This document shows, in pieces, positions 12,521 through 50,514 of a stretch of 64,000 nucleotides of DNA. How positions within the stretch are numbered: the stretch's first letter is position 1; every line of letters starts with the position of its first letter. Source of the DNA: Phoronis australis (Eukaryota > Animalia > Phoronida); contig NMRA01000734.1 of the NCBI GenBank assembly GCA_002633005.1, forward strand, positions 62,001 to 126,000, given 5' to 3'. The translations under genes and the position numbers were made by a program. The notes beneath the pieces were generated by a model that searched no databases, was not told the origin of the DNA, and was given only the letters and a program-made list of their open reading frames with translations.

Positions 12521-12645
12521 TCAGTGCTCAGTGGAAAGTCTACTGGTCTTTTCTTCATCACGAGAGCTCTCACGACTCAAGTTAAATGACTGCTCGCTGT
12601 CGGCACTACTTAAGCGGAGAATTTTGAACGGCACTGCCTGGTCCA
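12521..12645 (-). CDS. Gene A last coding exon
   Basis: tttcttttttcag acceptor; VDQAVPFKILRL...STEH-stop, similar to paralogue GLPPKIPRL. Confidence 0.75.
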
Positions 12646-15600
12646 CTGAAAAAAGAAAGCACCACACACGTCTAAAGTTTTTGTAAAATTGATACAAAAA
12701 TTAACCTTACAACAGCTTTTCTTCTCCACAAAAAGTCCTTCAAACTAGAAGACATTATAATCTACCTAAAAATTTAAGAAAAGACAATTGGCAAAATTGC
12801 AAAATTCTTCAAAAGCTAAATACATTGTTTAGATGCACAAAAGTGCAAATGATTCAGATTTTCTCTGTCAATGAATTGTCCATGAACAAAACAGAATTCC
12901 ACATGTTAGTCATGTAGCAGACCAACCTCGTTCCATTGAACATCAAAGGAACTTGGTTGTTAACGTACTGAAAGGAGTACCCCGCAACGAGGTTCAACTG
13001 CATGTGATTAATTAAAAAGTGTTTACCACAATGAAGAGTTGACAAATTCAACAACAGTAAAATGGATGCTGACTGATTTCTAAGCTCTGTTCCTCAGGAA
13101 AATGACAGATATCAACAATGGAAAGTCATCTGTTAAGACGTAACTAATAAAAGCAGACGCTACATGAAATTGATTGCCAACTAACTCTAATTTTCTCATT
13201 GAACATTCACACAAGGATTTTTAGAAAAAAACCCACAAAATAGTCTTTAAGCAAAAAAAAAATGGCAGTCATAAACATCACTCGTGAGTAATAGTTGATG
13301 TGACATAAGGAACAATCCATGTAATAATAATGTGATATAAGGAACAATCCCTGTAACAGTGGATGTGATGTAAGGAACAATCCCTGTAACAGTGGATGTG
13401 ATGTAAGGAACAATCCCTGTAACAGTGGATGTGATGTAAGGAACAATCCCTGTAACAGTGGATGTGATGTGAGGAACAATCCCTGTAACAGTGGATGTGA
13501 TGTGAGGAACAATCCCTGTAACAGTGGATTGATGTGAGGAACAATCCCTGTAACAGTGGATGTGATGTAAGGAACAATCCCTGTAACAGTGGATGTGATG
13601 TGAGGAACAATCCCTGTAACAGTGGATGTGATGTGAGGAACAATCCCTGTAACAGTGGATGTGATGTGAGGAACAATCCCTGTAACAGTGGATGTGATGT
13701 AAGGAACAGTCCCTGTAACAGTGGATTGATGTAAGGAACAATCCCTGTAACAGTGGATGTGATGTAAGAAACAATCCCTGTAACACTGGATGTGATGTAA
13801 GGACCAATCCTTGTAACAGTGGATGTGATGTAAGGAACAATCACTGTAACAGTGGATGTGATGTAAGGAACAATCTCTGTAACAGTGGATGTGATGTAAG
13901 GAACAATACCTATCATACCAGATGTAATGTAAGGAACAGTTCGCGTAATAGTGGATGAGATGTAAGGAACAATCCATATTATCTTGTGGAACGCAGGGGC
14001 CAAAGATAGATGAAAACTCAATTTCAGTGACAGCAAAACAATCATAAACACCAAATGCACTCAATCATGTGCCCGTGTATCACACACTGTGTAAAAATAT
14101 AAAATCGAGAGGCCAGCGCAGTGGAATTATCTGACGGGATATCGAAATTAGTATGGTACAACTGTGTTAAAGTGTGTACTGTTACAACTTTGTTAATGTT
14201 GTATCTGTGCTCGCTAAAAACAAGGTGCAGAAAAGGTATTTTGCACTAGAGAAAAACTGGATTTCCGGAATGGACCGTTATAAACAACGTTTGCTGTAAC
14301 GCGTTTCGATGGTAAAAGAATATCCCGGTTATTGTAACCAAATGTTAAAAATTGGAACCTCTGCCAATAAACTCGTGTAAAACAATCTGCATAATGCCAT
14401 GATTTTATGTCATATTCCCAGACAATATCACATTATCTCATCCACTTAGAAACATGTTATGTACCGTCACCTTTCTATCAAAAAAGAAACAACCCAATTC
14501 ATATTTGCTTAACATAAAAATTAATGACGGGGTAAGTATTTCATGTAGCTCTCTTTCTCTGAGACTCTTCACATAGCGTGGCCGGCTTGATAAAAGTAGC
14601 TGCAATCGTGGCAAAATCAGAACTCACTAATCAAAATAGAATATCGCGGTTACTAAAATAATTCATGTTGAAACCGATCACATTGTGTGGGCTCCACTGT
14701 CCTTGTTTATTGAATAGACTTACATGTTGATTCTCTGCGCTGTTAGCTCGATGTATAAGATATTCTTATTTTAGCAGGTCCAGCGTCACCCTGATTGAAG
14801 ACTCTGCGAGTAACCTGCCGAGCAGGTTGGATTCAATTTTGAAGACGGAACACAATTAAATTGTAAACATTTTTATTATATTTTCCAGTCTGAGGATAAA
14901 ATAATGCGTGAACAGACTTGTCCAATTATTCGGTGAACATTGATCTCACTACTGCCACACATCTGATCTGTGTTTACCACACGGACTCATACACCAGTTT
15001 GTCCAGCATGCAATGCTCCTGCACATCTAACCAGAGAATACATAAGTGCAAGAGTACCAAACACACTCAGCGTATTTACAATTATCTGAGCCTTCATTCC
15101 TAATAAAAGCAAGATGGATAATGAGGGTAAGCGAAACAGGTGAAGAGCACAGAAGAAAACGAAATATACTGCACAGATGAACAGCAACACACAAGCCAAC
15201 TCGACAGGTATGCACCTGCTTGAGTAGATTGTAATACAACTCTGTTACCTCAGCTTGTGTACACTACAACAGTGTGCATTGTTGTATCCATTCCTAATAC
15301 GCTACCACATAATCACTCCCACATTTTATGAAATGTCACTTGTAAGCAACACCTCTATTGCCTGGGTTTAGTGACTAACCTCTTAATTTTTCAACTTGGA
15401 CATTATAATACAACCTGCTACTGAAACCTACATGTTTCATACCATGGACACCATCATTAGAACCCTTTTACAGAGAGACCTATGTGTGCACCCTAGGCTC
15501 GTGCTAGCCGCTTGCCATTGGTGAATTCTGAGTGGCACTGGCGATTGTAAAGCTAAGCCCATTAGCCAACTTGGTGAATGCTTTTGCAGCTTGACAATAA

Positions 15601-18600
15601 AAATCAAATTTGGGAAACCTATTCGCGTGTCGACTCACAGTCAGCTCGAATCAAGTGGTGCAGTTAACGACATTCTTACTTCGATTCCTCGTCCTAAAAT
15701 AGCAAGCGAATGTTCCATTTCATGTCCGTCACTCCCCCTAAAACCATTCTTTTACTGTAACAAAATGTTCAACTGTGTAGGGGTGGGGGGGGAAGATCTC
15801 ATATATCGCATTAGTCGGGACTATTTTGGCAGCTTCCAAAGAAAGCAAGGTAAAGCAGATGTCATGATTTAGAGTTATGTTGCAAGATACAAGTAATATT
15901 AATGTTTTACTTACCTAAATGCCTTTCTCATCAAAATGTCCGCGAGGCAGACGTATCCCCGCCGCCGTAACCCAGGGATGGGGGGGGGGGAGGGGTCAGG
16001 GTCCCTACCAATTTTTTAGGTCAAAATCAATGCAATGTGTAACCCGGGATAGGGGCAATTTTTTGGGTCAACATAAATCCGGCATACCCCCGCCATAACC
16101 CGAGGATAGGGAGAAAGTGTTTGAATAATAATTTTTGAAAATGGCTAAAAGTGTTCAGATGTTTTAGCCATTTTGGCTAATACCTTTAAAAGTCTAGCGC
16201 GAGCCTAGGCACCTGCTAGAGCATGGTTGACAGGATATGAGTCATCCCACTCATAATGAATTAGGTGTCAAATAGGCGATTGTGAGCTCATTAAGTTGAC
16301 AGTTGACATTGACACTTCCTGTACACTCCTATCTATAAAAAACTGAATGTCTGACAGCTTGCAATACTACTAAAATGAAGCGATGCCTACAGATTGTATA
16401 TCTGCATCACTACTATCCCATAATGCTTTGTGTTACGACGCCTTGCACTATCCGTAAAATTACTATTCCCAAAACTTACCAGAATCTTGTTTCTGTATCT
16501 TTGGCCTTGACACCACTTCTTCCTCAGAATCTAAAAAATTCAAATTTAGTGATTTAGTGATTCAAGAACTGCAATTTGTAGTTTGAACCTTCCTTGAACT
16601 TTTTAAAAGTACTTGACGAGGTCTATTTACATGCCAAATATTAGACATCTTAGTCAAAGGGCGTCGGACATACAGCACCATTGCAAAATTGGAAAATCTC
16701 AAATGAAAAATGGATGTAAATATCTTTCAGCAGTTGAAAACATTTATTGACATACCAAATTTCTCAAGAATTAGTCAAAAGACCACAGAGCTAGAGCTCC
16801 GTGAAGGAAGCTTTTGAAAACTGGCTGCTGCAGCAGCACCACATATGGACCAATTTCACCTGCAAGTAACAGGCTTCAGGATTTTACTGAAATACATGTT
16901 ATGAGCAAATTTCACAGACCATCACAAAGCAAATTCATTTCACCAAGCAATTACCAACGCACTAAACAACTGCAACAAGTACCTGACATGGCTTCATCCA
17001 TATTAGTATCACCATCTGAAGATGACGATTCAGAGTCGCTTTTTGGAATCGGTACACCAATATTGAGACTCTAAAACAAGAAAAAAATCAAAGGGCATGG
17101 GAATTTTCTTAAGCACTTAGCACTGCATCTTTCCATCGGTCAAAAATCACTGATAATGACTGACAGACAATGGATAGAATGAGGAACAACAAATGACCTA
17201 CTTGTGGTGCTACCCGAGTAAAACCATTTGACAATAGGACTGTCCGGATTACACAGCGACACTCGAATCTCGCTGTATTTACCCAGAATGCCATAAAAAT
17301 CCATCAGGCACATCTGCTGCCACTACAATTTCACAGGTTATTTGTTGTCCGATTCTTTACAAGTTTTTTCTCTGTTGCATTACTCTGTCCTTCCAATGCC
17401 AACGAAGTACTACTGCTGAGCTGTGGGCTGCAACTCTGACGTGAGAAAGTTTGATAAACTGGACAAAATATTTGTGGATGGCGTGATTTGAAATTCTTCA
17501 ACTTCCCTACATCCATGAGAGATACGAAAATGTGCCTGATTTCCAAAACGAGGTCACACGATGCTTTCTTATCTCCAGGACAAAGGAGAGTTCTATCATT
17601 GTATAATCAGGGATGGCCCTATTGACTGGTGTTGGTGCATTACCACCAGTATCTCTGCATCAAATTTTGTCAAAATCACTCAAGCAGTTTCAACAGACTA
17701 TAAACAAAAGATCAGAACTAAAATGGTAACTTGGACTCTGGGATGCAAAAGTAACCCAAACATTAAAACAAGAGCAACGCGGAGCATTGAAATGCGCCCA
17801 CGAATGTATCGCAAATGGTGTGCTTTTAGGGTTATTTATTTGTATCATAAAAATGGCCACTGGATGGCGCAAAAATGTACAATCCATCCAAAAATGGGAC
17901 ATATTTCATAAAATTCTGTCAAAGAACTTTAGAGAAACAAAGGAAAACAGAACAAAATGAAATTGCCACTTGTGGGCACAGTGTCCGTTCCATCCGCCTG
18001 AAAGTCGTCGTCTGTTATCTTCATATAAATTCACTTAATAAATATAATAAAGATCCTGCAGTGGATTTTGGAGATACAGCTTTGGGCGCAAAAAAAAAAC
18101 TACCTCTAGGAGGCGCCACAGTATTCAGTCGCCATCATCAAACGTCCTCTTCACACTGAAAACATATACGCCAATTTTCAAAACCATCCCTAGAATGATT
18201 TGGTTTATCGAGGGGTGGACGCCAAAAACAAGATTTGAAAACAACAATAATGGCCACCAGGTTGCGCAAAATAACTTGATTCCATCCAAAAACAGGACGA
18301 TAGAGTCATCTCACCAATAGATGCCTATATTCAAAATTTTATGAAAATATGTTGAGGACCTTGGAAGATACAGACTGGTAAACATAAAAAACTAAAATTG
18401 CCACTAGGGGGCACACCTGTAGTCAGATCCGTCTGAAAGTCGTAGTCGTCCATTGTCAACATCATATAAAAACACTTGCTAAATTAAGAAAAGATCCTGC
18501 AAACAGTTTGATAGATACAGCCATGAGCGCAAAAAAACAAAACTGCCATTAGGAGGCGCCACAGTAGTCGAACTAGTTGGAAAATTGACGTCAGCCATCC

Positions 18601-21600
18601 ACTTCATAGTAAAAACATACATGCAAATTTTCACAAGTATCCTGAGAGCAGTTTGGTTGATAGACGAGTGGACGCCAAAAAACAGACTCAAAAACAGTAA
18701 AAATGGCCACTAGGTGGCGCAAACTAGGTCGAATCCATCTGAAAACGGAGAGATAGCGTCACCTAATTAACAGATGCCTGTATGCCAGATTTTATGAAAA
18801 TATGTTGAGGACCTTTGAACAAACAGAGGTAAACGTAAAAAAAATAAAATTGCCACTAGGTGGCACACCAGCAGTCAGATCCGTCTGAAAGTCGTCATCC
18901 TTCATTGTTAATATCACATAAATACACTTACTAAATTTAGTTAAGATCCTGCGAACGGTTTAGGGGATATAGCCATAGGCGCAAAAAAAAAACTGCCACT
19001 AGGAGGCGCCACAGTAGTCGGAAAATCATCGTCAGCTGTCCACTTCATAGTAAGAACATACATGCCAATTTTCACAATCATCCTTTGAGCAGTTTGATTG
19101 ATAGAGGGGTGGGCGCAAAAAGACTCAAAAACAGTAAAAATGGCCACTAGGTGGTGCAAACTTTGTCAAATCCATCTGAAAACGGGAGGATAGTGTCATC
19201 TCACTAATAGGTGTCTACATACCAAATTTTATGAAAATCCATTCAGGACTTTTGAAGATACAGAGGTAAACGTAAAAAACTAAAATTGCCATTAGGGGGC
19301 ACACCGGTAGTCGGATCTATCCGAAAGTTCGCTCATGCCGTTCCATCCATGGGAGGAACACATGTGCAAAAGTTCATGAACATACGTCAAGGCATTTTGG
19401 AGATAGAGCAGCGGAAGCCCGACGGACGGAGATGACGGCATAATGCGTCCACATATAAATATGTGGGCGCATAAAAATCAGCTAATAACGGCATATCTCC
19501 ATCTTTGTCAAATGCCATCAAGACTTGAGGTTAGAGATAATTAGCAAACAAGCTGAAGTAATTATAGACAGCGACAGTGTGAAGACTTCATGAAAATTAA
19601 GTGGACTTCACAAACTTGCAACTATCACTAAAGGAAACTTTCAGTTGGTAGTATGCTAACACAGGGAATGCTAATGGTCTTGTATTACACACACGGGCGT
19701 GGAGTCTATTCCTGATACTTGGCATTTTCTACATAAGTTTACTTTTGTGCAAACTCAAGATGATTATCTATAATTCTATGCACGAATATACAATAAATGG
19801 CTTAGGAGGATAACCCAATAATCCTAACATGCACTCAATGACCCATCATGGAGGCTAAAAGTTAAGAGTCTGAAAATGAAATCTTGAGTTTTTATCTTGA
19901 ATCTGGACGACATCAAATGTGAACTTAGACTACACCATTTTCATAAACCATAATGTACTCGACCACAAACTAATTACAATTATCTTGAGTTCACACGAAC
20001 ATAGCGTGGAAAATGCCAAAAATAATTTCGAGTTTCATTTTGAGAAGAAAGATTAGAACCTTGCCAATGGTCGCTTTGATTACTGGCCGTTAAAGGTAAA
20101 TACAATGCACATGTAAGAGTTTACCTCGATCATTTCCTCCACCCTTGTCGCTTTCTCATTTTTACCAACATCATTCAGGAACCTGACATATCGACAAAGG
20201 TCGTCCCAAAAAACATCGTGCTCATCACTACCCTTCCCAATATCTTTAGCGACAAATCCTTTTTCTTTGCATATCCGTAGAACACCATCAAATTCTTTTT
20301 CCGCATTCTCTACGTGCTTGGAATAATCCACTGAAACAAATGAGTCAACATGAAACATACAGTAATGCAGTACAGAAGCACTGGTCTAGACACAAAAATT
20401 GAGCAGAGAGTTCGTGGTGTATATGGTTTTATTGCCACATTTGGTCTAGAGTAAAACTTGCAAAATGACAGGCACAGAATCAGTGGAACCATAGGCAGCA
20501 ATCCAAATTACCCAACTACTATTATTGATTCATTACTGAAATGATAACATAATAACATAACACTAGACGAAAGACAATGGTAAAAAAATTATTGACAAGA
20601 AGCATGGTGACTCATAAGTCGTGGGTTTTCATGAGCTACGCATGAACAGAGTTGACTGATAATAACCCTGACAAAACCAAAAGATAGCGAGCACATCACA
20701 ATTGTGGTCATACACCCATGGACGAAGATAAGAATCACCCCCAACCCCATTAAAGTCGTAAGACAAAATTCCATCCACACACCCAAGTCAACACCAATTT
20801 TCCCATCGTGTATTGAAACCATAAACAACTTACACATTCTTACAATGGTTTTGAAATTATGAGTTCAAAAGAATTTCTCAAAAAGGTGTCGAACAACAAG
20901 TTTTGATGTAGGTTACTTACTGGCATAAATCTCATCTTTTTGGTACAAAAACTGGGCCAAAAAGCATAGTTGGTTCTAGTTTTAATTTAGGTGGCACTCA
21001 TACTTGCCAGACAATGTGTCACCATGATGCAGGCTTCAGTTGGGGGGGGGGAGGGGGTGGGAACTTCGTCTACAGCGCTGCCGTCATTTTTCAAATACAA
21101 TCTGGGATGGTTATTGGGGCGTAAACATTCGGTGACATCACAGATAACTTGATAAATGTAAAAACAACTTGTCCAAAGAACAACACTTATGCCTTGAGCA
21201 TAATACAATTGAAGGCACGGGTCTACTGTAACAAGCTTTTGGTGTATGACTGAACAAAAAGAAAAGACTGCAAGTTTCAGTGAAAGCGGGCCTCAAAATT
21301 CATGGAAAGAACACATACTTGGATCATTTGCATGAACATTTTTTGAAGCATGTGCTATCTGATCACACTGAAGTTAAATATCACCACCTAAAACGCAAAA
21401 TACAAATCAGATTGCAAGACCAAAGCTATCGATGACGTCACTTGATATATGTGAGACTAAAACAGTCCCACAATGCACCTAGAAGGCACCAGAAATTAAA
21501 TTTTGATGATTTAAATTTCAAACACTGAATGCTTTCAATCTGAAATTTTTTGAAAGTTGCGATTGTCAATCAAGTTGAAATTTTCCACGTTGAAAGCTGG

Positions 21601-24600
21601 CACATAATGGGAAGGACCACAATTTAATTAAAGTAAAAATTTTAATTGAAGTGGAACCATAGAGACTTCAAACAATGACAGTTTTGAGACATCCAGTTGA
21701 GGTAACAAAATACAGAAAAATTAAGTCAAATACTGGAATTTGTTTACTTGAGCGGTTGTGTCCGTCTCTTACGGACTTCAGCTTGGCTAGTGGAGTTCTC
21801 ATCATTCTGACCAAAAGGTGGCTTTTAACCAAACATGATTTAACCCCACCAAGGTGGTGCCAGACTATTCGGCATCAAGGTCAGGACAATATCCCATATA
21901 AGTGTGATGGAACCTTGATCCACCTTGGTGGATCAAGGTTCCATCACGACTGGTTAAAATGCCACCTTTTGGCCAGAACAATAATAACACTAGACAAGCT
22001 GAAATCCATGAGAGACGGATGCAACGTCGCTAACTCAAGCAAATTCCAGTATTTGTACTCATTTGTTATTTTTGTATTAAAAACTTTAAAAACTTAAAGT
22101 AATGCGTTCACAGATAAATATGTGGGTGCATTAAAAAACTTACTTGTGCAAACCCTCTCACGAGCCATGACGGTAAAAATACGTCCCAACAATATAGTGG
22201 TTCGTACTTGAGAAATAGGGTCCTCCTTCTTAAACTCATCACTTATTTTCTTGGCATCAATAGCATGCATAAGTGCTTCGCCAGTTCTGTCCTTGTCCAA
22301 ACAAAGGGACGTGAAGTTTACCAGCACAGTCACAGAACTACTGCTCTTGAACATGTGTAACAGTTTCAAAGTTTTGATAGCGTCATCATACCACCCAATC
22401 GCACATTTATACTCTTCATCACATGGATCGCCATTATCTTCCTTTCTCCTGGCAGCCAGGTGGTGATAGGCCCCAATGTTCAACATAATCTGCACAAGAA
22501 AAGGGTGAAGACCACTGCCGAGAATCTTGCGGGCCATCTCGTGCGTTTCGTAGTAAAAGAATTTAGCCTTGTCGAAGTGTTCACGATAGTCCGCAACAAG
22601 CGCCATCTGATTGTAAATGCGAACCACCTGGAATGTATTTGCAGCGTGCTTACAAATGCGAGGCCTTGCTTGATCAATCATATCTGACGCCTCTGCATAA
22701 TTCCCTTTAAGGCCCAACACCTGGGCTCGTATAAAACAATACTGTGCGCACAATAGTGCGTAGCCAATAAATTCTTTAAAAACTTTCTTCCCTTTAAGCT
22801 TCATAGCGGCAGCTGTATCATCCAACTGTCGTATTTCTGGCTCCATTTCATTCAGTATAACTTCCGCTTCTTTCCATCCATTCACGGTGTCTCGATATTC
22901 ATAGTGTTGATGAGCAATAAACAGGCGAACTAACAATGTGAATAAATGATTGCCACTGCTCTTTGCAAGGTCCAAGTACCTCTGAAAAAGATCTAAACGA
23001 TCCTTGTCTTGTCGAAGCAACGTTGGTGTCGCTAACAAGTTAAACAAATGCAAAGCTTTGAGAAAACTCTCTCTCGTGGAAATATCACCTAGTTTTATAT
23101 GACTGAGGTTATGCAGGGAATATTCGATGCTTCTATAGAAGCGAATGACCTGCAATAAGACGCGAGGATTTTTACCGGTCTCCGACTGTTGAGCTACATG
23201 TTCTAAAAATCCATGAAAGTAGGAACAAAGCCTTTTTCTGGCCTCATCAATCATTTGAATTTGACTGTCTGATTTGTCTACAGTTTTCAAGAAATCTTGA
23301 ATAAGCGATGGTACGTGAAATAAAATGTGTTTTGTACCAGGTACATCCTTGTTTGTGGCCTCAGCTACAGGGTAGCAGTCACTTATCACTAAGAAATGTC
23401 GTGAGCGTAAAAACTGGAGATCACTGTTAACATTAGATGTGATGTCGTCAAGAACGGTGCAGGCTGCTGGTGCATCAAATTCAGACAGAAACACAGAGAG
23501 TTTTAACAGCACGCTTTGGAACTGTGTGCCAAGATTCAAGTAGGCATGTTTGAGGATCTCCTCGACAGACACATGTCTGACCAGCGAACTTCCCTTGAGA
23601 AGCTTGACGAGTTCCTTGGGTTTGTTCACTTGATCCTGCAGTCGTTTACCCACCATTTTGACCAGATAGGGGTTCTGCTGGCACAGCCGGGCCAACTCAT
23701 CCAAATCCTCAACTTGTGCTACGTCAGTCTGCAAGCAACGACTTCAGAATGTCAAAGCAGTTTTTCCAAAAAATCTCAACACAGGCTAGAGGGAATTTTG
23801 CCACAGAATTGGCAGGAGGTGTCATGCTGCCAACTTGGCTGGGTATTTAGGCCCTTGAGGTATCGCCTCAGATGGGTATTTCTGATCAAATATTGCCTTG
23901 AGTTGACGTTTTGGCTTCACAGGTATTGTCTTAGTGGGTACTTTGGCACCTGAGGTATCATCTCAGGTAGGTATTTTGATTAAATATCGTTTGGAGTAGG
24001 TGTTTTGGTTTCGCAGGTACTGTCTTGAGTGGATAATGGAGGAGCAACCAGCAAGATTCATCAGTTCGGGTTAACTTCAAGCCCATTTTCAAGGATGCCC
24101 AGTTACTGAATTAGTCAACATTTTGAAAGTGGAGTGGCAACCCCGCCCAATATGTGGAAGTCAATTATCCACGTACACAGTCAGGTTCTCCTTTTGAGAG
24201 AGAAGTGTTATTTTGTCATTCCAATCTCATGTATCCTATTCGTCGTAATAACCGCCCATGCCCCTATAAGCGCCCCCCCCCCACGCGTTTTCCGACTTTG
24301 CTGAAATAAGCGCCCAGTCTATGCACGTATACATGCGAACAATGACGTACCTACAGTATTAAAACTCGGCTACAGTAACGTCTTCAATTTATCAAAAAAT
24401 TTTTGCACGGGTCTTCTAGACCACCAGCTGCACTGCTACTTTTGTATTTAGCCGTGACTTTACACTTCAAAGTAACGCAGCACTTCAAAAAGAACGCAAC
24501 AGCGTTGCTACGCTCTCACGACGACCATGTCCCACTACGGTCTGACCTTTCAGTAGACACATGGACTGTGTCTCATGAATAAAAATAACTCGGTGTTAAA

Positions 24601-34273: not shown

Positions 34274-34380
34274 GGATGGTTATCTCTTCCTAGTATTGTT
34301 AGTTCGTTATTAGTTCGTTATTAGTTTGTTATTAGTTCGTTATCTAATAAACTAATAATACTAGGAAAAGATAACCATCC
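34274..34380. repeat. Hairpin with about 30-bp stem enclosing 12-bp tandem repeats
   Basis: ggatggttatctcttcctagtattgttagtt / aactaataatactaggaaaagataaccatcc; internal repeats of a TTAGTTCGTTA(T)-type unit. Confidence 0.75.
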
Positions 34381-35065: not shown

Positions 35066-35246
35066 CAGGGGCGTATCCAGGATTCTGAGTTGGGGTGGGG
35101 GGCATAAGATTATTAGCCAGGATTTTACCCGTCTGAAATTCGGCGCACCCCCGGATCCGATACTCATGCCAATCGGGGCGAATTTTAGGGGGGGGGGGCA
35201 TGGTCCCCTTGGGCCCCCGCGGCCTGCCTCCCTGAATCCTCCTCTG
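35066..35246. mobile_element. GC-rich hAT-like MITE with 5-bp TSD
   Basis: CAGGGGCGTATCCAG ... CTGAATCCTCCTCTG flanked by GTCTG on both sides. Confidence 0.65.
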
Positions 35247-39452: not shown

Positions 39453-40049
39453 TATATATGCGAACATGCGCTCAAAGAGTCGAACTGACTGCTGCTTGAA
39501 ATCACCGTAGTTATGTTTATATCAAAGGCCAAAGGTCACATTTTCCACATAAGGGAAAATGTGCTGCGTCAATGTCTTGCCATATCGAATAAGAAGACGT
39601 GCTTTGCCGTATGGGCCAACCGACTCACACGGCCTCAAATCTATGGGTCAGTTTTGAAGACGTATGGGTCATCAATTTGAGCCTGCCGTTCATGCATTTC
39701 ATCCAGTGTTTGCACACATTATTTTGTTTTTGCTAGTGATGTATAGGGCTGCATGTCTCCTTCATTTTTTTTATAAAAACCTCTGTCATTTTTGTTTCTA
39801 TGCGTGTTTCATTGCAAACTGATGTCTACGCGCAACTTAATGGCAATCTCTACGATTCATAAATTTCAGCTGAGGTAATTGTTCGGGGCTGTCCCTGTTA
39901 CGCTAGTTACGACGATGTATTTCGTAAAATATGTCCTTAATCGACATTTTACGGGTCGAAGGGTGACACAGTGTAGCCGCGTCTGGCTACAGGGATGATA
40001 TGAAGAGCATAACTAGAGACGCCGTTTGTATAACACACTTTATTCGGTG

Positions 40050-40935
40050 TAGCATTGGCAAGCGATAGAGTTACAGGCGATGAGAAAAGTGCCCGAACAA
40101 GCCTTGAATCAGATACCAAAGAAGCGTTGAAAAAGTCAAATCGAACAAGCATTGACAAAGTATGAAGAAAGTCCTGAATTCCGAATGCAGATTTGTTGAA
40201 CGCGACCACTTAGAAGACGGTACGCCGTCAGATGTCACCGAGTCAACTGAATCTACAGCTTCAGAGAAAGTGTACCCCTTCCACAAACAAATATGATTCT
40301 GATGATGGAAAGAGAGAAGTCCTGGAATGGAATGGCAGAAACAAATCAGGTGACGTCGAAGATGTTCAACAGGATGTAATCCAACCTTTAGGTATAGCTG
40401 TGTTCACTAATGATGTTAATAGTAATGAAAAGGTCCTGAAATCTGGAAGAAAACTCGTTCAAAAGGACTACCAAGAAAACGTCACGAAGTCAGATTTCAC
40501 CGAGTCCACCGACTCTACATATTTGGAGGAAGTGTGCCCCATTTCCACAAAGAAAGATGAGATGGGGAAGACAAATGTCCTTGACAAGACGGACGTGCCT
40601 CATGATGGAGAAAGAGACGTCCTGAAATTGAATGGTAATGGCAAACTAGGCAACGTTGACAATGTTTCACAGGAAGTCAACCGACAGTCAGGTACCGCTA
40701 GGTTCGCTGACGATGCAAACAGTACAGGAAAGTCCTGAAATCTAAAGAATACCCCGTTCAAGATGACTATCTTGAAGACGTCAAATCCAATTCTAGGACT
40801 TAGCTGATTGATGAGTTCGATGACGATGCTGATCGTAAGAGAAAGTCCTGTCCACTTAGAAGACGTCACACTGTCTGATTTCAATGATTCGACTGAGGCT
40901 ACAGTTTCCGCTGCGATTGGGGAAACCTTTACATA
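40050..40935 (+). pseudogene. Decayed exon encoding an acidic protein with internal repeats of about 90-100 aa
   Basis: Repeated peptides KVLKS..(V)Q.D(Y/H).E(D/N)V..SD(F/V)TEST(E/D)ST and DG.R(E/D)VL..NG..K.G.V..V.Q.V, broken by frameshifts and stops around ORF 40232-40738. Confidence 0.5.
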
Positions 40936-41043
40936 GGACACATGACGCTCCACATCTAAGACTCTGTGCAGCAAATCCGGCAGCGTCGAAAGTGTTATTA
41001 GAAAAAGATAGTAAGACAAAAACAGAATTACAAAATGAAAGAC

Positions 41044-41172
41044 AAATTTAAGTAATAAGCAAAGAATAAGAAATTTTAATTTCTTATTCTTTGCTTATTA
41101 CTTAAATTTCAGTCTTTCCATGTTAAAACATTCATCAGTCTTTCCATGTTAAAACATGGAAAGACTGATGAA
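41044..41172. repeat. Two adjacent perfect palindromes (32-bp and 20-bp arms) plus a short direct duplication
   Basis: 41044-41109 and 41131-41172 are self-complementary; 41109-41130 duplicates part of the second. Confidence 0.9.
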
Positions 41173-41788
41173 GCAAAATAAAAAATAAAATATGACAAAT
41201 AAAAGATAAATAAACTAAGGCAAGATTATAAACTAAAAATAAAAAAAAAATAAAAAATAATAAAAAATCGTGCAGAAAGTTTGTGAGACAATGAGAGACG
41301 TTCAAGTAGCAACTTGGCGACTGGTCACGTGGGACCAGATACCAGTGGCCTCTAGAGGACGAGGAGGCATTTTCCGGGTTATATGTTTTGTTTAACACTT
41401 ATTCGGTGCAATCGTATTCACTGTAAAAGGGTCTAGCTGTAAAGATAAAGTAATTTCGTGGTTCAGCTAGGTGGCGATATGAATCACCAGTCCTACGTGA
41501 ACCCCCCAATTGCTTCCTGTAGGTCTCCCATTCTTACAGTTTAACAAAAGGTGCCTCGGCACTCCTCAGCCAACAAACAACAATGTACACCTTGTGAGAG
41601 GTGAACAGAGTTGTTTCAGTTTCTTGTGAAGTAACCTATGAGTTAAAATGACATTCACTTTCAATCTCATGAACAGTTTTAAAACTGCTAGAATAGGCAC
41701 CTGTAGGCACCGAGTATAAACGAGAAAACACTTAAACCGTTTTCCTTACATAATGCACAAGTTTTCAGCATAGTATCAACTACAAGTT

Positions 41789-42044
41789 ATCTACAATACA
41801 TTTTGAAACAATGGTTCCCACTTGTCTACATTGAACAAGTACGCCAACACACATCTACAATACATTTTGAAACAATGGTTTCCACTTGTCTACATTGAAC
41901 AAGTACGCCAACACACATCTACAATACCTTTTGAAACAATGGTTCCCACTTGTCTACATTGAACAAGTACGCCAACACACATCTACAATACATTTTGAAA
42001 CAATGGTTCCCACTTGCCTACACTGTGCAAGTACGCCAACACAC
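41789..42044. repeat. 64-bp tandem repeat, 4 copies, just downstream of the gene B stop codon
   Basis: Units start at 41789, 41853, 41917 and 41981 (atctacaatacattttgaaacaatggttcccac...). Confidence 0.92.
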
Positions 42045-42215
42045 CATCAAACCCAAAAGGATTAACAACGAAAGTTGTTATATGCATTTCCCATCCACTC
42101 GTATTTCAGTACTGGAGTTGAAGCCAATAATTTCCACATCACGTAAAATCGCAAAAATACAGAGGGAATCGAGTCAATCAAGTTTCCCAAACTACGTAAG
42201 ATATCACAAAACGTC

Positions 42216-42343
42216 TTAAGGCTGATCCATGAAATTGCTTCCTTCTTCAATTACTAAGCTTTCTTGCATGAATTCAACACTTCGTGAAGACGAGTCCTCG
42301 TCTGCGACCAATCGAGGTATCTTTGGCGGCAAACCTTGCATTC
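42216..42343 (-). CDS. Gene B last coding exon
   Basis: ttttttgcag acceptor; GMQGLPPKIPRL...FMDQP-stop. Confidence 0.75.
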
Positions 42344-45300
42344 CTGCAAAAAACATGTATAATAATAGTAACACATACAGCCAAACCAGAGTGTAGTATC
42401 CTTGCAAAGTAACGATGTGTAAAGGCCAGGGTGAATAATTGTAAACAGTTTCGGTGCATTTAAGTGTTCGGCAGTCGAGAGGCAGCCGTGACACGATGTA
42501 CACGTATATGGAAACTGTCTGGACATAAAAGGAACGTTTGATGTCATTTGTTTTTGGCCAAAATATGAGTACTACGAGTACGAACTTTATAATCTGATTT
42601 AGGTAATCTTTGTGCCGATGGCGGAGACTCGAGACATTCACCGGACAAAGTTGTGACCGCAGGATGGTGTTCGTCGAAGTCGTACGCTGAAAGCCTGTTT
42701 GTGCGAGGGAACTGACTACAAGTTGACCGTGTTAATGAGAAGCTGGACTCTAACTCAACGTTATTAACTTGGGTGCCCTTGGAGAGTGCTCGACCTTCAG
42801 TTGTTATTCAGTTTATTTGCACAGATTGGTCCCAGTTCCATGTCGATGGCATAATATTTTCCGTTTTAAGTCCCCCTGCTTCTAAAAATACACCAGGGCT
42901 GATATTAGAGCTCCTAGAAAGAGAAAGGTTTCGCTGCTTTCGTAATGTGCACCGTGGGGCTTACCAACAAAAAGCGCCTCTGGATGAGAACAGAACGTGA
43001 GTGTTTAAATAGCAAAAAAGTAGTCTACTTTGCAGATTGATTGTGCAGGAATGCATCAGGCCCACTTACATAAAAGTTCTACAGAGAGACTGTTGAATTC
43101 CGGTTGATCATTGGGACGCCTATGATGTCAGCCAACACGGTTGACACCGAGCACCTAAATATTCTTGATATTTCACCCAATCACGGCAGTTATCTCTTTT
43201 ACACATAACTTAATTGGTAACAAATATTTCACAAATTTTGAGTATAACATAATTCTAGGGAACAACTTCTCTATGTATTATAAAGACACCAACGCACGAC
43301 AACAGCAAGGTTGACCGGGACGGCACTAAAAGTTAACTGTTATGTACTCACCTTGCGCAGATCATCTAACTCGTACTGAAATGACTTCAAAGTTTGGGAA
43401 GAACAGATGATTCATAAATGCTAGAGACCTTGCTGGAGAAGTTGATATGGCCCGCATTTCATCATTTTAAATAAAGTTATAACCAAGTTCAGAAATCACT
43501 CTTAGAGACTTGGGTCCCGTTCCAAGAAAACTGGCTTAGCTAAGACAAATATTAAATTCAAGCAAATTTTAAGATAAAACTTAAATTTGTCTGAAGTCCT
43601 ATACAAAAATACTTTTTGACTAAAAATGTGTATTAAATTTGACGCAACTTACCGGATGTAGAAGTTCGGAGGTTGAGACTTAATTAAGTTATAATAAACT
43701 AAATTTAGTTTCTTGGAAAGGACCTCAGACTTGTAACAGTGCGTGACCTTGCTTAAACGACAGAAGGTAGGTTTATAGCATTCTATGAACCCACAATGCA
43801 TCTGTTATTGCCGTCTATCGTGGTTTCTATATTTTAGCATAAGGTACAGCAGATGTTATCGCATCGCTCACATTCTGTATGGAAAGAAACTAAGCTGTAC
43901 AACTTTCCGAATGAAATGGTGAACGCATGTCCTACTACTAGGCGACAATCATTAACTTATAAATAAATAAATACAAATATTAGAAAAGATAATACGAACC
44001 CGTGTCTTCGCCCATAGGTGCGTCGCAGTCAGGCGAAGATGATGATGATCTCGAATGCTCAGAGTCTGTTCCAGCAATAGGGGATCCATTTTCCATGTTC
44101 TGAAAAGGAAACAAATGCGAGCCATGCTCAACACGTCCGATGCAATTTATGAATATAGTTCGTCACTTACAACCATGAGTCACCGCCAGAAAAAACAAAT
44201 CTTTGATTCACAAATCCTACTATAGACTCAAAAAACACGGCTTACCCAACCCGAAACACAGCTCAAGGGCTCACATTAACGCCCCACGGACTCTTGTTGT
44301 ATTCTTCAACTTTTATTCTCAGTCTTATAATTGCTTACCGTGGTAGAATTCTATTTCAATCACCAACAAGAACACGAAAACCATCAGCGACTCAAGAAAA
44401 TGCCTTGCACTTTATTCGGGTTGGCCAACCCAGAAATGGAGCATGTATGCATTGAACTGTGACTTGAGTTACCAAACGAAAACTAATCCTATCATGATAA
44501 GGAACACTATGGGAACGACTTTATAACAGCAAAGGGGCCGATTCGATTTTCGCTTTTTAGCCAGCTAAACAAGGCGATTTAGGGCTTTAAGAGGTAAAAC
44601 ACACAAATGATTCCGAATTACAGCAAAGTATAGTGTTCGAAATAAAAAAGTGCAAATTCAAACTTCGTTGTCCACAGACGGCAGAGTGAAAGTGTACACC
44701 TTGTCTAGACGTTGTGTTTGCGGTTAGAGAGCAGTGGATGTGAGTCCGTGAGCATTGCTTTTTTGGAGCGTAAGCCTTGTTTCGTGTGCTCGTACACAAG
44801 CTTGTAACTAACAGTGCAGCAGACCAAGAAAAATAGTGGGGATGGGACGTTTACATGAAGAAAAAGTTTCTTGGTGTACGCATTGTAACTTGGTGTTGAT
44901 ACAATGCCTATGTTATAATGATTAATTACATAATAATAACCGTATAATTAATATAGTCGCTAGTACACATGCATTGATGAGAAGCAGGAGAAGGTGCTTG
45001 ACAAGTGCGTTGCATTGTGGGTAAATGCATTAGAACGAAAGTAGTGCTGTGCTGCTACAGGACGAGTCATTTTATTGCATCTGGAGTAAAGGCCAATATT
45101 TAAGATGCAAAATCAATAAAATTCCTCCGCCGTGTTGGGGCAACACAAAGCGAACAATTATAAACAAAGGGCGGTGAATCTGCCGTTGACTTAATCCAGC
45201 AATCTGAAATTATCAGGCAATCGCCGGCCTATATCAAAGCAACGACAAGCACTACCTGCGTTATTAAAAAGGACAGAACTTTTAAGCAAAAGAAAAGAAA

Positions 45301-48300
45301 TCAGTTCAGCAGGTCAAAACAATTAAAGGAGGACATGGCTACTAAACCTACAATAAGCATGTCTCTAGTCTTCACGAACTTGTCCAGTTTTTCACGTTGT
45401 ATCAACATCCCGGGATAATCAAACAACATCTTCCAGTTGTAGTCGTGCGTTGGGTCCCCCCTGCCAATATCTTCGGCCAAAAATTTCTGTCTTCTGCACA
45501 GATCCAGTGCACTGTCGTATATACTCTCCATTCTATCGGCATACTCAGTAAATTCATCTGTAATGGAACATTCACAGATTACTAGGAAACATTCGCATCT
45601 AGTCCCATTTTTATTCACTTGCTGCATCGTAGTGGTGACATTGAACATCGAAAGTAGAGTCACTCCTTAACTCCATCCAAAACAATTTCCATTTCAATTA
45701 TCACGTCTATTATATCATCTTAATTTTAGCAATTATAATCATTAAGTAATACCTGTGAATCTTTTTTGTTCGGCCATTTTCTTCAGAACGAAGCCCAGAA
45801 GGATGGTGGCTCTCACTTGCTCAATAGGATCATCCTTCTTAAACTCAACAGCCACCTCGTGAGCACACTCAGCTAGCTTTAAGGCTTTCTCATTCTGAAT
45901 CTCTCCTTCTAAGCACAGTTTGCTGTAATTACACAGCAGTTTTAAAGACAGACTGCTCTTATCCAAATTATACTTCTTCATAACTTTGATGGCCTCGTCA
46001 TACCACTTTCCGGCTTCTGAATATTTATCTGCCTTGTCACCAGTGGCACTGTGACCTTGTAAATGACAACACGCGCCACAGTTCATGTATACAGTGATAA
46101 GAAAGGGGTGGGATTTGCTGCCAAGCACCTTTTTAGCCATTTCAAAAGACTCAGCGTACAACTGACATGCAATGTCGAACTTTCCCTGGAAATCAGCTAT
46201 GAGCGCTTGTTGGTTAATAATTCTGACCAAGTGAAGAACCTGAGCATGGCTGGTGAAGAATGACCTTGCCTCACCAATCACCGCAGAGGCCTGTTGATAA
46301 TCTTTTTTCAGATATAAAACTTGGGCCCGAACAAAGCAATAGTGAGCATACAGCAACACACAGCCATCCGTGCCTCCTGTACCTTTGAAAGATTTTCTTT
46401 TCCTGAGTTGTCCTTTAATTGGTGATTCCACTTCATTCAGTATTGCTTCTGCATCTTTCCAACCTCCTGTCGTGTCCAGATAGTCAAAATGTTGTTGAGC
46501 GATGAACAAGCGAGCTAACATGGCAAATAGTTGATTTCCACTGGATTCCGCAATTACGAAATACTTTTGAAAAAGCTCTAACCGTTCCTTGTCTTGTCGA
46601 AGGATTATAGGAGTTCCCATGACATTGAACATGTGCAACGCTTTAAGAAATTCGGATTTTCTGGAAATATCTGGGAGATGAATACCATCTAAATTTCTGA
46701 GAGAAGACACGATACTCTGATAGTAGCGGATAACTTCTTTTAGAACTCGTGAATTTTTTCCAGTTTCCGATTTATGACAAGCATTTTCCAAAAAAGCATG
46801 GAAATAAGAGCAGAGTTTAGCTCTTGCATCACGAATCATTTCTGTCTGTCGTTCTGACATCGACCAAGAACCCAGAAAGTCACGGATTAGCGACGGGACA
46901 TAGTAGACGTCTTTGGAGTCACTCCTTGACGCACTGTTTAATCTATGTGGATTATCAATTCCTAAACAACGCCTTGAGAGTAAAACCTGCAGAAACATAG
47001 AACAGTCTTCACCTAAAATCGAAGTTGCAGCTGAGACGTCAAAAACTGATTGAAATAAGGAGAGTTTGAGAATGGCGTCTTGATAATCTGCTCCAAGAGC
47101 TAAGTAGGTGTCTTTCAAAATCTCGTCAACTTCAGCAAACTGTGACCTTAGGGACCGCTCACGCAGTACCCGTATCAACTCCTTAGGCTTACTTCTCGAT
47201 TCTTTGAGTCGTGATTGAACTAAAAATATCAGCAGTGGCCTCTGCTTGCATATACCACTTAATTCTTTAAAATCTTCGTTCATGACAAGAAAAGAGCTCT
47301 GAAACCAAAAGAAAATGTATTTATAAATATGGACGCAAGTGACGATAATACACAACAACATGAAGAGAAAAAAATAGAAACAAGAACGGGAAGACGTGGA
47401 TAGTGTACAACTGCTGGTTGGTCATTGTGTTTAGTCAATAGAAGAGTATGCAGAAACAAGTTGCCGACGCTTCATTTTGTTAGCCTTTTTACGTCACTTC
47501 GTTGCATGCAAAGGTAATTAGGGCCAAGGAACGGCAATGAACTTTTGAAAAAATGTCAGTCTACGATAACCATGCATTTTTAGTAAAAGTAACACCAGCC
47601 ACATTTGCTTACCGGTTTAAAATAAAATTTGATAAGGAACAAAAATACTGTTTCTCAGTAAAATGACACACCTTATCAATTAATGCATGGAAAAAGTTGG
47701 TAACAATTACTGCATAATACCTCTATATCTGTATCAGAAGTAAGTCTCTGAAACATCTTCACACAATGATCGATGGGCAAGATGTCCAACTCAAGTTCTT
47801 GAAGAGTTCCTGAGAAATGTGAACGAATTCCGTCTATCGCTTTTGGAGGAGTCTCCGCACCACCGTACTGGACCGTGTTGGTTGACGTAAACAAAAACTT
47901 TACCTGGGGGAAGGCAAATACATCACACTTGACGTGGGTTTACTCATAAAAGTCATACCCACTACATCGACTGAAGATTGCAGCTTTTCGGGAATACCCG
48001 AATCACTTCAAAGTTGTCCACATACAATTTGAATGTTATATTTAGTATCGAAAACATTACCAATTAAGAATTATGGAAAAAAATCATTAATTCTAACACC
48101 AAAATCATTTCCCAAAACATCTTTGACGAAGTTCTCGATTATCCAATAAACGGGAAGACTTTTTGGGCCATTCATTGCAAATCGCGTCTAAAGACTATTG
48201 CGAGGCTTTAACATAGAACATGTCTTCCTCCAAATTAAGCTTCAGTGTCCAAACAGATAACATGGTTCTAAATAATGTTAATTTTTGTGTAGTTTTTGTA

Positions 48301-50514
48301 GCCTCACATATGGTAATAATGCATGAAAGTTACCTTGTCATTTGACACTCTAGCCAAAACGTCTCTCAAGTGCTTAAAAAATCCTTCCATACGATCGGAA
48401 TGACAAAGTTGGTCTACGTTATCCAGAAAAAATATGGTCTCTAAAAATAAAATAAGACAAATCTTTGAGTACGATAAAACATATTCGAACAACAATTTCA
48501 AATTTACTGTACATACTGAAAGATAATTAAAGAACTTATCGAGAGCACTACATACCGTATATGCAAGTGTTCAGGCCCACAAACCTGTTTGTGAATCTGT
48601 GCCTATTTTCAAATTGAAACATCTATCTGTGAGCAAACATTTGAACAAAACCAAAACAGCAAAATATTCAAGATGAAGTCTCAAAAATGCTGTTACAGTT
48701 TTCTAAATTTTTGTTTTATGCAACTTTGAATTTGGGGCAGATTCTTTTAAATAGTTAGAAAATTAAAACCAGTACAAAACCCAATTGCTAGTGTGCAAAG
48801 AATCGTTCTACTTTGGTGCAGAAAAGTGTACCGTACCGCTTTCGATCAACTTCAGCTGATGAATCACTGCAGCTTTGAGGTCATTTGTTGACAACATTTC
48901 ACAGGGCAGAACGTCCATCACACTCAGAATTTCGTTGAACATAGTATCAACGGATGTGGCTCCTCTGCTCAAGAAACAATACACTATATAAATATGTATT
49001 ATGGCAACAAATTTTCTATAAGACAGGTTTTGTTAAGCACATTTCCATTTGCACTTTAAAATAGCCGCAGTGGACAGTCTCCCCACTATTGGCGGCAACC
49101 AGATCTTTAGCACAAGTTGTACCGTGCAATGTAGCCATTCTGTGGGTGATCTATCTCCTTTGTGTCTCTTTCATCACGTGATCACCGTGTAAAGGATCGT
49201 CCATGATGCTCTTTCGAGGGAGACGATTTACCGGACCATTTCACTGCACCGACACCTGGTGCTAGGTCCGATTGCCGCCAAGTGGAGACAAGACTGCGGC
49301 CTGGACAGTTTTGCAAGCAAAGTTTTCAAAAAAAAATTAGAATGTGCTACTTTCACAATTTTTATGAAGCATATCTGAATAGCCTTTACGAATACTCAGA
49401 ATAACAAAATACAAATCTGCAGTTGCATTTCAGCATTCAAAAATCCACAGCTTTTATCTTTTTTAAAAGGAATCGCACAAGGACTTTTAAAAAAGTCCTT
49501 TTGCGATTCCTTGACCCCAGGTCGTACGTAAATTAACAGCAGGCTCCAGAGCAAAATGTCACAAGTCTAGATACTGATATAACTTTCTGTAAGCACATAA
49601 ATTAAAATGAAACATATCCCACACAATTATTGTTGCCATGTCAAATGCTTGTAGAGAACGAATGAAATCCAATTAACACTTACCGCAAACATATTTTATA
49701 CACACCAAAATGGCACTTCCAACTCATCCGATAACAAACCTTGTGGGCCAACGCAGTCTTGCCCACGCCTCTCATACCTGTGACACTGACAGCTGAAATT
49801 ATGAAAAAAAAAACATATGAGGAGTAGGTGTTTACAACTTACGTTTGTGGATATTTTTAGCAGTTAGGGTCATCCAGAAATGATTCGAGAACTGTTCAGC
49901 AAGGAAAAGTGAACTTCCAATGGTGCTCGATGACTGAGAACAAAGAGTAGTGTTTGCTTTCATGGCTTTCTTGAGTGTTCAGAATAGTACCTCGAGTTTC
50001 AATATTGCTGACATGGTCATTACATCATTTTCACAATATCCAATTAATCATTACCTCTAACTTTTGCTGTCTGGAGCAATTCCATAACACTGACAACCTC
50101 TTTTTCTCTTCCAATGAAGAAATCCTGATCTTTCAAGCCTGTCCTGTCTTCATGTTTCTGGCGATCTTTCACATAATTACAAAGAATCTCGTCTATTGGT
50201 TTGCCCTGATGTTTTCCATGACTCATATAAAGACCCATTTTGCTGAATGCATTGATAGAGAGATCAACTGCCTTGGTCTCACCCATTTTATCAATGAGGG
50301 TATCGAATACTTTAATAAATGCAGTGTCACCATCATCGCCACCAAGCTCCACTTGCAGACGGTGGTGGTCTGCCGCTCCAAGCTGTTTTTCAACAAGTCC
50401 TAGGAACCTCACGCGTTGATCGGAGTGCAGCTCTCCCTGAATGTCATCAATAATGTCCCTCAGGGGGTCAACCTGAGTAGGATGGGTGCCCACTGGACTT
50501 GAGAATGACGCCAT
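42216..50514 (-). CDS. STAND/NLR-like protein B, paralogue of gene A, about 988 aa, 9 coding exons
   Basis: Exons 50514-50055, 49792-49684, 48964-48837, 48440-48334, 47903-47721, 47298-45753, 45557-45352, 44099-44000, 42343-42216 (2967 nt, in frame). FFIGREKEV, Walker A GMRGVGKTALA, Walker B IFFLDNVD, KFLFTST, LSLFQSVFD, TPRs. Confidence 0.88.
43512..43726. mobile_element. Small AT-rich MITE
   Basis: Imperfect TIR GGTCC(CG/T)TTCCAAGAAA / TTTCTTGGAAAGGACC; AGACTT flanks both sides. Confidence 0.55.
44000..44099 (-). CDS. Gene B exon 8 (Ser-rich)
   Basis: tttccttttcag acceptor; NMENGSPIAGTDSEHSRSSSSSPD. Confidence 0.72.
45352..45557 (-). CDS. Gene B exon 7
   Basis: 206 nt, same size as paralogue exon. 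Confidence 0.85.
45753..47298 (-). CDS. Gene B exon 6: HD1/WHD and TPR repeats
   Basis: Lies within the 539-aa ORF; collinear with gene A exon 6. Confidence 0.92.
47721..47903 (-). CDS. Gene B exon 5
   Basis: 183 nt, VKFLFTSTNTVQY...IRSHFSGTLQELEL. Confidence 0.88.
48334..48440 (-). CDS. Gene B exon 4: Walker B
   Basis: 107 nt, ETIFFLDNVDQLCHSDR. Confidence 0.88.
48837..48964 (-). CDS. Gene B exon 3
   Basis: 128 nt, GATSVDTMFNEILSVMDVLPCEMLSTNDLKAAV. Confidence 0.85.
49067..49300. mobile_element. MITE-like element with imperfect inverted ends
   Basis: gccgcagt..tctccccact..tggcggcaa / ttgccgccaagtggaga..actgcggc. Confidence 0.45.
49684..49792 (-). CDS. Gene B exon 2: Walker A (GMRGVGKT)
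   Basis: 109 nt; tttcag acceptor and gtaagt donor. Confidence 0.9.
50055..50514 (-). CDS. Gene B exon 1: death-fold-like domain
   Basis: MASFSSPVGTHPTQVDPLRDIIDDIQGEL..., strongly similar to gene A exon 1; donor gtaatg. Confidence 0.88.

Follow-up and report, generated by a model that had tools for sequence, protein, structure and literature searches.

The 64 000-nucleotide stretch of Phoronis australis contig NMRA01000734.1 analysed here (positions 62 001–126 000; the window) contains two neighbouring genes, A and B, which are identified from their sequences as two old, intact paralogues of an animal STAND family with a DED-like/NB-ARC/TPR layout. The same death-fold/NB-ARC-type STAND/TPR architecture had been read from the DNA in a preliminary description and is upheld by a six-helix model of the N-terminus, by homology to Branchiostoma proteins and by a TPR_12 match in gene B. 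The two proteins may serve in immunity or cell death.

Gene models, transcripts and age of the pair

Comparison of the window with itself placed the two genes next to each other, homologous and head-to-tail on the minus strand, with 68% DNA identity in two blocks and a protein-level match exon by exon. The spliced frame of gene B starts at ATG 50514 and spans 50514–42216 in nine coding exons (988 amino acids); that of gene A starts at ATG 31982 and spans 31982–12521 in ten coding exons (1014 amino acids). Neither frame contains an internal stop, every intron is bounded by GT..AG and 462 of 975 aligned residues (47%) are identical. Exon sizes of 109, 128, 107, 183 and 206 nt are common to both genes. 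This size match alone is little proof because 6–17 open AG..GT windows of each size occur within the gene A span; the five exons are, however, homologous and in the same order (E values for A versus B of 9e-12, 2e-7, 8e-7, 2e-17 and 4e-8). All eight gene B introns have a same-phase partner in gene A, seven in the same alignment column and one off by one column, and exon 6 of gene A matches the gene B exon 6 frame with an E value of 6e-136. The pair of complete, intron-containing paralogues with shared exon sizes proposed in the preliminary description was thus recovered.

Coding exon 1 of gene B (50055–50514; all exons of both genes are on the minus strand) encodes the death-fold domain (residues ∼12–122) and an FxGR motif ahead of the P-loop, and is covered by RNA reads. 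It is followed by exon 2 (109 nt, 49684–49792) with Walker A at 49778–49755 and an NB-ARC score of 18 bits, below the cut-off, by exon 3 (128 nt, 48837–48964), assigned to the nucleotide-binding domain (NBD) and homologous to its counterpart in gene A, by exon 4 (107 nt, 48334–48440) with Walker B at 48432–48412 and by exon 5 (183 nt, 47721–47903) with the sensor-1 region, in which Thr stands for Arg at 47891–47877. Exon 6 (1546 nt, 45753–47298) encodes HD1, WHD, the arm and TPRs; the motif alignment places a GxP-like motif at 47250 and an MHD-like site with His replaced by Pro at 46899–46885. The end of the helical repeat region lies in exon 7 (206 nt, 45352–45557), and exons 8 and 9 (44099–44000 and 42343–42216) supply the stop and, before it, a Ser-rich acidic tail in which lies a basic P-x-K-x-x-R-L motif.

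In gene A, coding exon 1 (31520–31982) encodes the death-fold domain, recognized from a PYRIN score below the cut-off, a model and a fold search (see below), and FxGR. Exons 2–5 (30892–30784, 28530–28403, 27575–27469 and 26553–26371) are assigned to the NBD by homology to gene B, with Walker A at 30878, Walker B at 27567 and the sensor-1 Thr at 26541. Exon 6 (1585 nt, 22144–23728) encodes HD1, WHD (His replaced by Pro at 23314–23300), the arm and TPRs, and exons 7–10 (20330–20125, 17070–16983, 16530–16480 and 12645–12521) encode the helical end, the acidic tail and the stop. The gene A model derives from homology to gene B, and the 51-nt exon 9 (16530–16480) is its least certain part. Tandem arrays and a repeat family of ∼435 bp occur in the gene A introns and flanks (3969–5100, 13288–13975, 41789–42044, 17900–19328 and 29253–29974), and several long pseudo-open reading frames (ORFs) derive from them.

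Transcription of gene B was followed over 33500–52500 in RNA data made up of three raw-read runs, of which ∼18–19% each was read, and a contig set, all carrying the same species label; a junction was listed from three reads at two starts upward. The gene is transcribed from the minus strand at low depth. Five of its eight coding junctions (exons 4–5 through 8–9, including the weak donor after exon 8) were confirmed by four to nine reads each, summed over runs. To this extent the reads bear out the exons first described; junctions 1–2, 2–3 and 3–4 in the P-loop region, which flank exons 2 and 3, fell below the listing threshold in the sampled reads, although the bins have depth. The 2015 contig set (X4) contained no piece over the gene B coding exons. 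Depth over gene B differs ∼3–5-fold between runs; the run conditions are not stated, and hence no inference was drawn on immune induction.

Six reads have a loose end at 50614, and their letters match 55863–55888 exactly. The 3′ end of a first exon of gene B accordingly lies at 55862–55888 (minus strand; 5′ extent not mapped), outside the coordinates of the preliminary description; it is spliced to the acceptor at 50614 and a GT donor follows it. This exon is non-coding because an in-frame stop lies just before the ATG. The 3′ untranslated region (UTR; 39840–42215, minus strand, end approximate) was drawn from minus-strand read depth, which reaches ∼39.9 kb, with poly(A)-type hexamers at 41080 and 40044. 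Two non-synonymous variants of gene B were seen among the X3 reads, at 46760 (codon 509, four of seven reads) and 50209 (codon 102, seven of seven reads), and are probably alleles. An antisense ORF of 174 codons lies on the plus strand at 40159–40908 inside the 3′ UTR; it is made up of three degenerate repeats of 260–300 bp and has no Pfam match. The reads there are mostly on the gene B strand, and some break off in loose ends (at 40133, 40852, 40889 and 41002), a sign that the genome may contain related sequence in other places.

Synonymous sites between A and B are saturated overall and dN is ∼0.45; the duplication is therefore old and both frames have been retained, as the preliminary description had supposed. 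The two genes share no upstream sequence. In the death-fold exon (50514–50149 versus 31982–31614), synonymous sites have diverged a little less than elsewhere in the gene (13/28 versus 44/133 at fourfold sites, p = 0.20; 39/61 versus 153/324 at all synonymous sites, p = 0.018, uncorrected), and past gene conversion of this exon is possible but not established.

Relatives, nucleotide switch and N-terminal fold

Gene B exon 6 was searched against 1.84 billion representatives and gave 415 hits at E values up to 0.001. The best 150 of these were mostly TPR-only; three matched in one long collinear stretch, namely one Branchiostoma protein and two unnamed ENA proteins. The Branchiostoma relative (P0149) passes the Pfam cut-offs for DED (41.7 bits), NB-ARC (34.4 bits) and TPR_12 (69.5 bits) and fails that for NACHT (16.8 bits, cut-off 26.7). 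Spliced A and B matched four Branchiostoma proteins collinearly with E values of 1e-17 to 1e-21 scaled to 1.84e9 sequences, and residues 126–600 alone, without the death fold and most of the TPRs, gave 1e-6 to 1e-10 (against P0149, 4e-9 for B and 2e-6 for A). A Branchiostoma profile scored 84 and 75 bits on the spliced proteins, compared with a maximum of 3.7 over 100 shuffles and two reversals; in the PDB it found the DED of cFLIP (E = 1e-8), kinesin light chain TPRs, Apaf-1 (E = 1e-3) and plant NRC4 (E = 0.015).

A profile search (alignment A1) returned nine of 7997 candidates, among them only two full-length family members, both from Branchiostoma. A word-based search with gene A exon 6 among proteins of 925–2640 amino acids confirmed 0 of 7986 candidates, and in metagenome scans 0 of 598 pattern matches were confirmed with the N-terminal alignment and 0 of 208 with the exon-6 alignment. 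Judged by sequence, the only full-length relatives found are uncharacterised Branchiostoma DED–NB-ARC–TPR proteins. The ENA proteins P0066, P0091 and P0273 begin and end about where exon 6 of the window (∼1.5 kb) does, which suggests that the large HD1–WHD–TPR exon is conserved in other animals. Trees were calculated with nine and 14 rows, leaving out short-match rows and near-duplicate amphioxus/ENA rows, and in both A groups strongly with B.

The Walker motifs named in the preliminary description are present in both copies: Walker A reads GMRG(I/V)GKT in exon 2, in agreement with GxxGxGKT, and Walker B reads hhhD(D/N)VD in exon 4, in agreement with hhhhD. FxGR followed by Walker A (residues 133–166 in B and 134–167 in A) aligns to amphioxus NB-ARC, and exon 2 scores higher with NB-ARC than with NACHT in both copies. 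The ATPase is assigned to the NB-ARC-type STANDs because of homology to the Branchiostoma relative, though the exons of A and B singly stay below the cut-off. Searches of NCBIfam and PADLOC gave weak P-loop or spurious matches only.

Changes in three motif residues common to both copies had escaped the preliminary description. The sensor-1 arginine is Thr and the MHD histidine is Pro in A and B; Arg is present in six of the seven other aligned sequences, His likewise in six and both together in six, whereas A and B have neither. In the GxP (GLPL) motif of HD1 the Pro is kept and the Gly is lost in both copies. Gene A has a His two residues before the MHD-equivalent site and gene B has none, and the MHD His is kept in the ENA relatives P0066, P0091 and P0273. 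Since both paralogues share them, the losses most likely predate the duplication. According to the available text of PMC8813719, the MHD motif binds the β-phosphate of ADP and its mutation leads to effector-independent activation, while ATP binding depends on the sensor-1 Arg, in place of which RPP1 has another residue; the active oligomer of RPP1 holds ADP. The same text describes plant TNLs as also being without the sensor-1 Arg, so that its loss is no bar to NB-ARC membership.

In the C-terminal region only TPR families were matched in Pfam, with no LRR and no WD40, and the earlier assignment of TPRs in their place stands. TPR_12 scored 44.5 bits on gene B exon 6 (cut-off 30.1) and 24.9 bits, below the cut-off, on gene A. 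An exon-6 profile found kinesin light chain TPRs in the PDB (E = 1e-8) and, weakly, NRC2 (E = 0.29). A basic P-x(0-1)-K-x-x-R-L motif is present in the acidic disordered tails of B (42329–42309), A (12631–12611) and three amphioxus relatives; K..RL occurred in 0.2–1.6% of tail shuffles, the motif having been chosen after the alignment was seen. We take it to be a possible likeness of a monopartite nuclear import signal.

The N-terminus of gene B was modelled with AlphaFold from a two-sequence input and formed six helices (pLDDT 82.6). When this model was compared with 48 161 chains, the top 22 rows were all death folds. The best match was the second DED of vFLIP MC159 (Z = 11.6, root-mean-square deviation 1.9–2.1, 93 residues aligned), followed by the PYD of AIM2 (Z = 10.3) and the DED of caspase-8 (Z = 10.0); the CARD of caspase-9, the PYD of POP1 and the DEDs of PEA-15 and FADD followed at Z = 9.5. 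Below the top DED, which leads by 1.3 Z, DEDs and PYDs interleave. The model thus makes a six-helix death fold a solid prediction. The gene A N-terminus, modelled as a single sequence (pLDDT 57), gave PYD-bearing chains in ranks 1–7 (Z = 6.8–7.7), tied with CARD and DD. Foldseek with the N-terminal model found no match at E values up to 0.001, a PDB sequence search with gene A exon 1 gave nothing useful and Pfam CARD had no hit on either N-terminus. RxDL is a DED motif in helix 6; it is missing from both N-termini and also from the Pfam-positive amphioxus DED.

The divergent DED is the best reading because the top structural match is a DED and the amphioxus relative has a DED. The death fold first noted in the preliminary description can therefore be placed more narrowly, in the DED/pyrin branch, where the models point most likely to a divergent DED with a pyrin-like lean. 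The N-terminus had at first been taken for a PYD, on the strength of the PYRIN hit, the ESM Atlas and the weak gene A model; this reading was downgraded once the better gene B model was obtained. That the domain is nevertheless of the pyrin type proper, or stands part-way from DED to PYD, and forms PYD-like filaments, with the remainder of the mechanism as proposed below, is unlikely but keeps a real share of the probability. PYRIN (PF02758) is the only death-fold Pfam family matched in both copies (A, 19.8–20.9 bits, E = 4e-4; B, 14.8 bits, E = 0.03; cut-off 22.9), the ESM Atlas gave a pyrin cluster at 0.77, which is a lead only, a two-sequence profile of the A and B N-termini weakly found the NLRP1 PYD (E = 1.3), PYD-bearing chains take the first seven places for the low-confidence gene A model and AIM2 is second for that of gene B. 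Every one of these sequence signals is below threshold, however, the better model puts a DED first and the closest relative of full length carries an evident DED. In the available text of PMC8662601 PYD occurs only in euteleosts among 39 proteomes, and in that of PMC3196919 amphioxus has a DED where vertebrates use a PYD; the accessible parts of PMC2575513, PMC3196919, PMC8662601 and PMC3308963 describe PYD as vertebrate-specific or as absent from the invertebrates studied. No description of an invertebrate PYD or of the present DED-like/NB-ARC/TPR family was found in the open-licence PMC and bioRxiv literature.

Proposed mechanism and alternatives

The best explanation, in which confidence and doubt are about evenly balanced, is that A and B would be cytosolic STAND switches that respond to a trigger by forming a ring, in which clustered death folds engage a DED caspase or FADD. 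The TPR arm would bind the trigger, most likely a protein or peptide ligand for a TPR array, and oligomerization would proceed through the NB-ARC; the clustered death folds would then draw in a DED caspase or an adaptor of the FADD type, and caspase activation with death or defence signalling would be the output. Nucleotide is presumably still bound, with the usual ADP lock and the contact to the γ-phosphate of ATP missing. What keeps the protein off would probably be contacts of the arm and TPRs or an inhibitor bound to it; once active, the ring may do without exchange for ATP, in the way of the RPP1 resistosome, which holds ADP.

Several results weigh against this explanation or parts of it. 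Pfam DED (PF01335) had no hit on either N-terminus at E values up to 10, and comparison of the N-termini with an amphioxus DED profile was not significant (hhalign probability 2.3%). The profile matches expected of the architecture were obtained in part: TPR_12 passes in gene B, whereas NB-ARC (PF00931) reaches 18–19 bits on the NBD of the window, on single exons only (cut-off 23.5), and passes in the homologue P0149. The phylogeny of STANDs likewise gives the strong grouping of A with B and neither a single animal clade nor its rejection (weak support; approximately unbiased test, p = 0.465). Identity of A to B peaks in the arm (61%, compared with 57% for the death fold and 43% for the TPRs) and the amphioxus relatives are 87–95% identical to each other, both unlike a fast arms-race receptor. 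The 115 flanking ORF stretches of at least 62 amino acids yielded neither a caspase nor a death-fold adaptor.

A second alternative, about as doubtful as a pyrin-type N-terminus, is that A and B act as scaffolds outside immunity, their switch having degenerated, in a developmental or nuclear role and without infection-triggered caspase activation. Death folds are almost always signalling adaptors, and Walker A, Walker B and the death fold have been kept in both copies despite synonymous saturation, which argues against it. The loss of two nucleotide-sensing residues, the slow change among amphioxus species, the low copy number found and the basic tail motif shared with amphioxus, which may be a nuclear import signal and was chosen post hoc, are in its favour, as is the available text of PMC10959488, which proposes relaxed constraint and no oligomerization for CARD-less Apaf-1-like proteins.

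It is quite improbable that A and B form an obligate heteromeric sensor/helper pair, like linked plant NLR pairs or NAIP/NLRC4. Such a pair would fit the tight linkage, the long retention after duplication and the better conservation of the death fold and arm than of the TPRs. Both genes nevertheless have the same architecture and motif changes, neither has a dead P-loop or an extra domain and they stand head-to-tail without shared upstream sequence; no sensor/helper division of labour was seen in the domains or motif states of A versus B. Tandem pairs and triplets are, moreover, a common outcome of duplication in coral NB-ARC/NACHT loci in the available text of PMC4083563. That gene A is silent or decaying and gene B alone functional is very improbable: the gene A introns are long and repeat-bearing, but its 1014-codon frame is open, all of its splice sites are intact and its motifs have been kept despite synonymous saturation.

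If the explanation as a caspase-activating switch is taken further, an Apaf-1-lacking lophotrochozoan might use an NB-ARC–TPR platform that is independent of ATP exchange and carries a pyrin-like effector, and the PYD might have originated among invertebrate DEDs long before bony fish; this extension is rather unlikely.

Neighbouring features and relation to known systems

A core-2/I-branching β-1,6-GlcNAc transferase is encoded in a long exon at 422–1453 (minus strand; Pfam Branch, 97 bits). Among the best 120 of 556 hits its best named matches are from Lingula, then annelids and molluscs (∼40–43% identity), with a hemichordate lower (236 versus 201 bits). On the strength of this one gene the host is probably a lophotrochozoan. 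The element at 2604–3717 has 305-bp terminal inverted repeats of 89% identity and Cys-rich short frames without a Pfam match, and is probably a non-autonomous DNA transposon; we take the Cys-rich frames to resemble THAP starts. On the plus strand, ∼57070–60890 is occupied by a gene of several exons that encodes WD40 repeats (match at 59575–59787) and an acidic N-terminal part. It stands head-to-head with the gene B 5′ UTR exon, ∼1.2 kb apart, and the two genes may share a promoter.

The accessible text of PMC11463336 reports DED caspases and FADD, and no Apaf-1, among molluscs, annelids and Lingula, and that of PMC10959488 no Apaf-1 in molluscs and annelids. In the light of these parts of the two papers, the absence of Apaf-1 leaves open which intracellular platforms activate lophotrochozoan caspases. 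If the host is a lophotrochozoan, an expressed DED-like/NB-ARC/TPR protein would be a concrete candidate for such a platform, and should the pyrin-like reading be true it would give that clade another kind of ring that activates caspases. With sensor-1 Arg and MHD His missing from both copies, the pair can serve as a natural experiment on whether an animal STAND switches when the usual nucleotide lock is gone, and a death fold that sits between the two families, DED and PYD, bears on the origin of the PYD, reportedly specific to bony fish. Were the domain an ordinary divergent DED and the proteins typical NB-ARC–TPR members, the pair would be a well-supported, modest addition to a known, unstudied class.

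The statement in the preliminary description that NB-ARC–TPR proteins are little characterised in animals was too strong. In the available text of PMC2246300, NB-ARC proteins of amphioxus, sea urchin and Nematostella have an N-terminal DD, DED or TIR, with WD40 sometimes replaced by TPRs; that of PMC4083563 lists DED and TPRs among coral NACHT/NB-ARC proteins, many of them as pairs or triplets; and that of PMC6321704 lists placozoan NB-ARC proteins with WD40 or TPRs and CARD or death-like effectors, two TPR rows of the supplement giving no effector. These invertebrate Apaf-1-like proteins resemble A and B in a DED, DD or CARD at the N-terminus, in TPRs for WD40 and in their tandem pairs. The three papers are domain surveys without function, and their available text makes no mention of sensor-1/MHD loss or of a lophotrochozoan member. 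The DED–NB-ARC–TPR layout is therefore already known from invertebrates and unstudied.

The Branchiostoma proteins XP_078614517.1, XP_066267598.1 and XP_035693308.1 are the closest in plan, with a death fold, NB-ARC, HD1/WHD, arm, TPRs and an acidic tail bearing the same basic motif, and share ∼30% identity with A and B in the NBD (55/184 and 56/185). They differ in a Pfam-positive DED and in the canonical sensor-1 Arg, GxP Gly and MHD His, whereas A and B lean towards pyrin and are without those residues; by sequence they are homologues of A and B, and at most possible orthologues. Apaf-1, CED-4 and Dark share a death fold and NB-ARC with A and B, and probably work in a like manner, gathering death folds in a ring for an initiator caspase. 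A and B differ from Apaf-1 and Dark in having TPRs instead of WD40 and in lacking the sensor-1 Arg and the WHD His, and their effector fits DED and PYD (Z = 11.6 and 10.3) better than CARD (Z = 9.5).

The replaced sensor-1 Arg is shared with the plant TNL RPP1, and in plants, according to the available text of PMC8813719, the active oligomer is ADP-bound and MHD changes remove autoinhibition; RPP1 and the MHD-variant NLRs have other effector and sensor domains, and the likeness is an analogy only. Bona fide animal NLRs, restricted to NACHT plus LRR in the available text of PMC3879445, differ from A and B, which have NB-ARC and not NACHT and TPRs and not LRRs. The same two differences separate them from the vertebrate NLRPs (PYD–NACHT–LRR), the PYD of which they resemble in helices 4–5 and in fold, with a PYRIN score below the cut-off. 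Bacterial and fungal NB-ARC–TPR STANDs (Avs, MalT/AfsR-like proteins and fungal NLRs) have the same succession of NB-ARC and TPRs, and the TPR part of A and B matches bacterial TPR clusters and kinesin-light-chain-type TPRs; A and B differ as intron-rich animal genes with a death-fold effector and few, divergent repeats, and gave no convincing PADLOC or NCBIfam match. Set beside all of these systems, three things are new here: the host, probably a lophotrochozoan; the absence from both copies of two residues that sense nucleotide; and a death fold that falls between DED and PYD.

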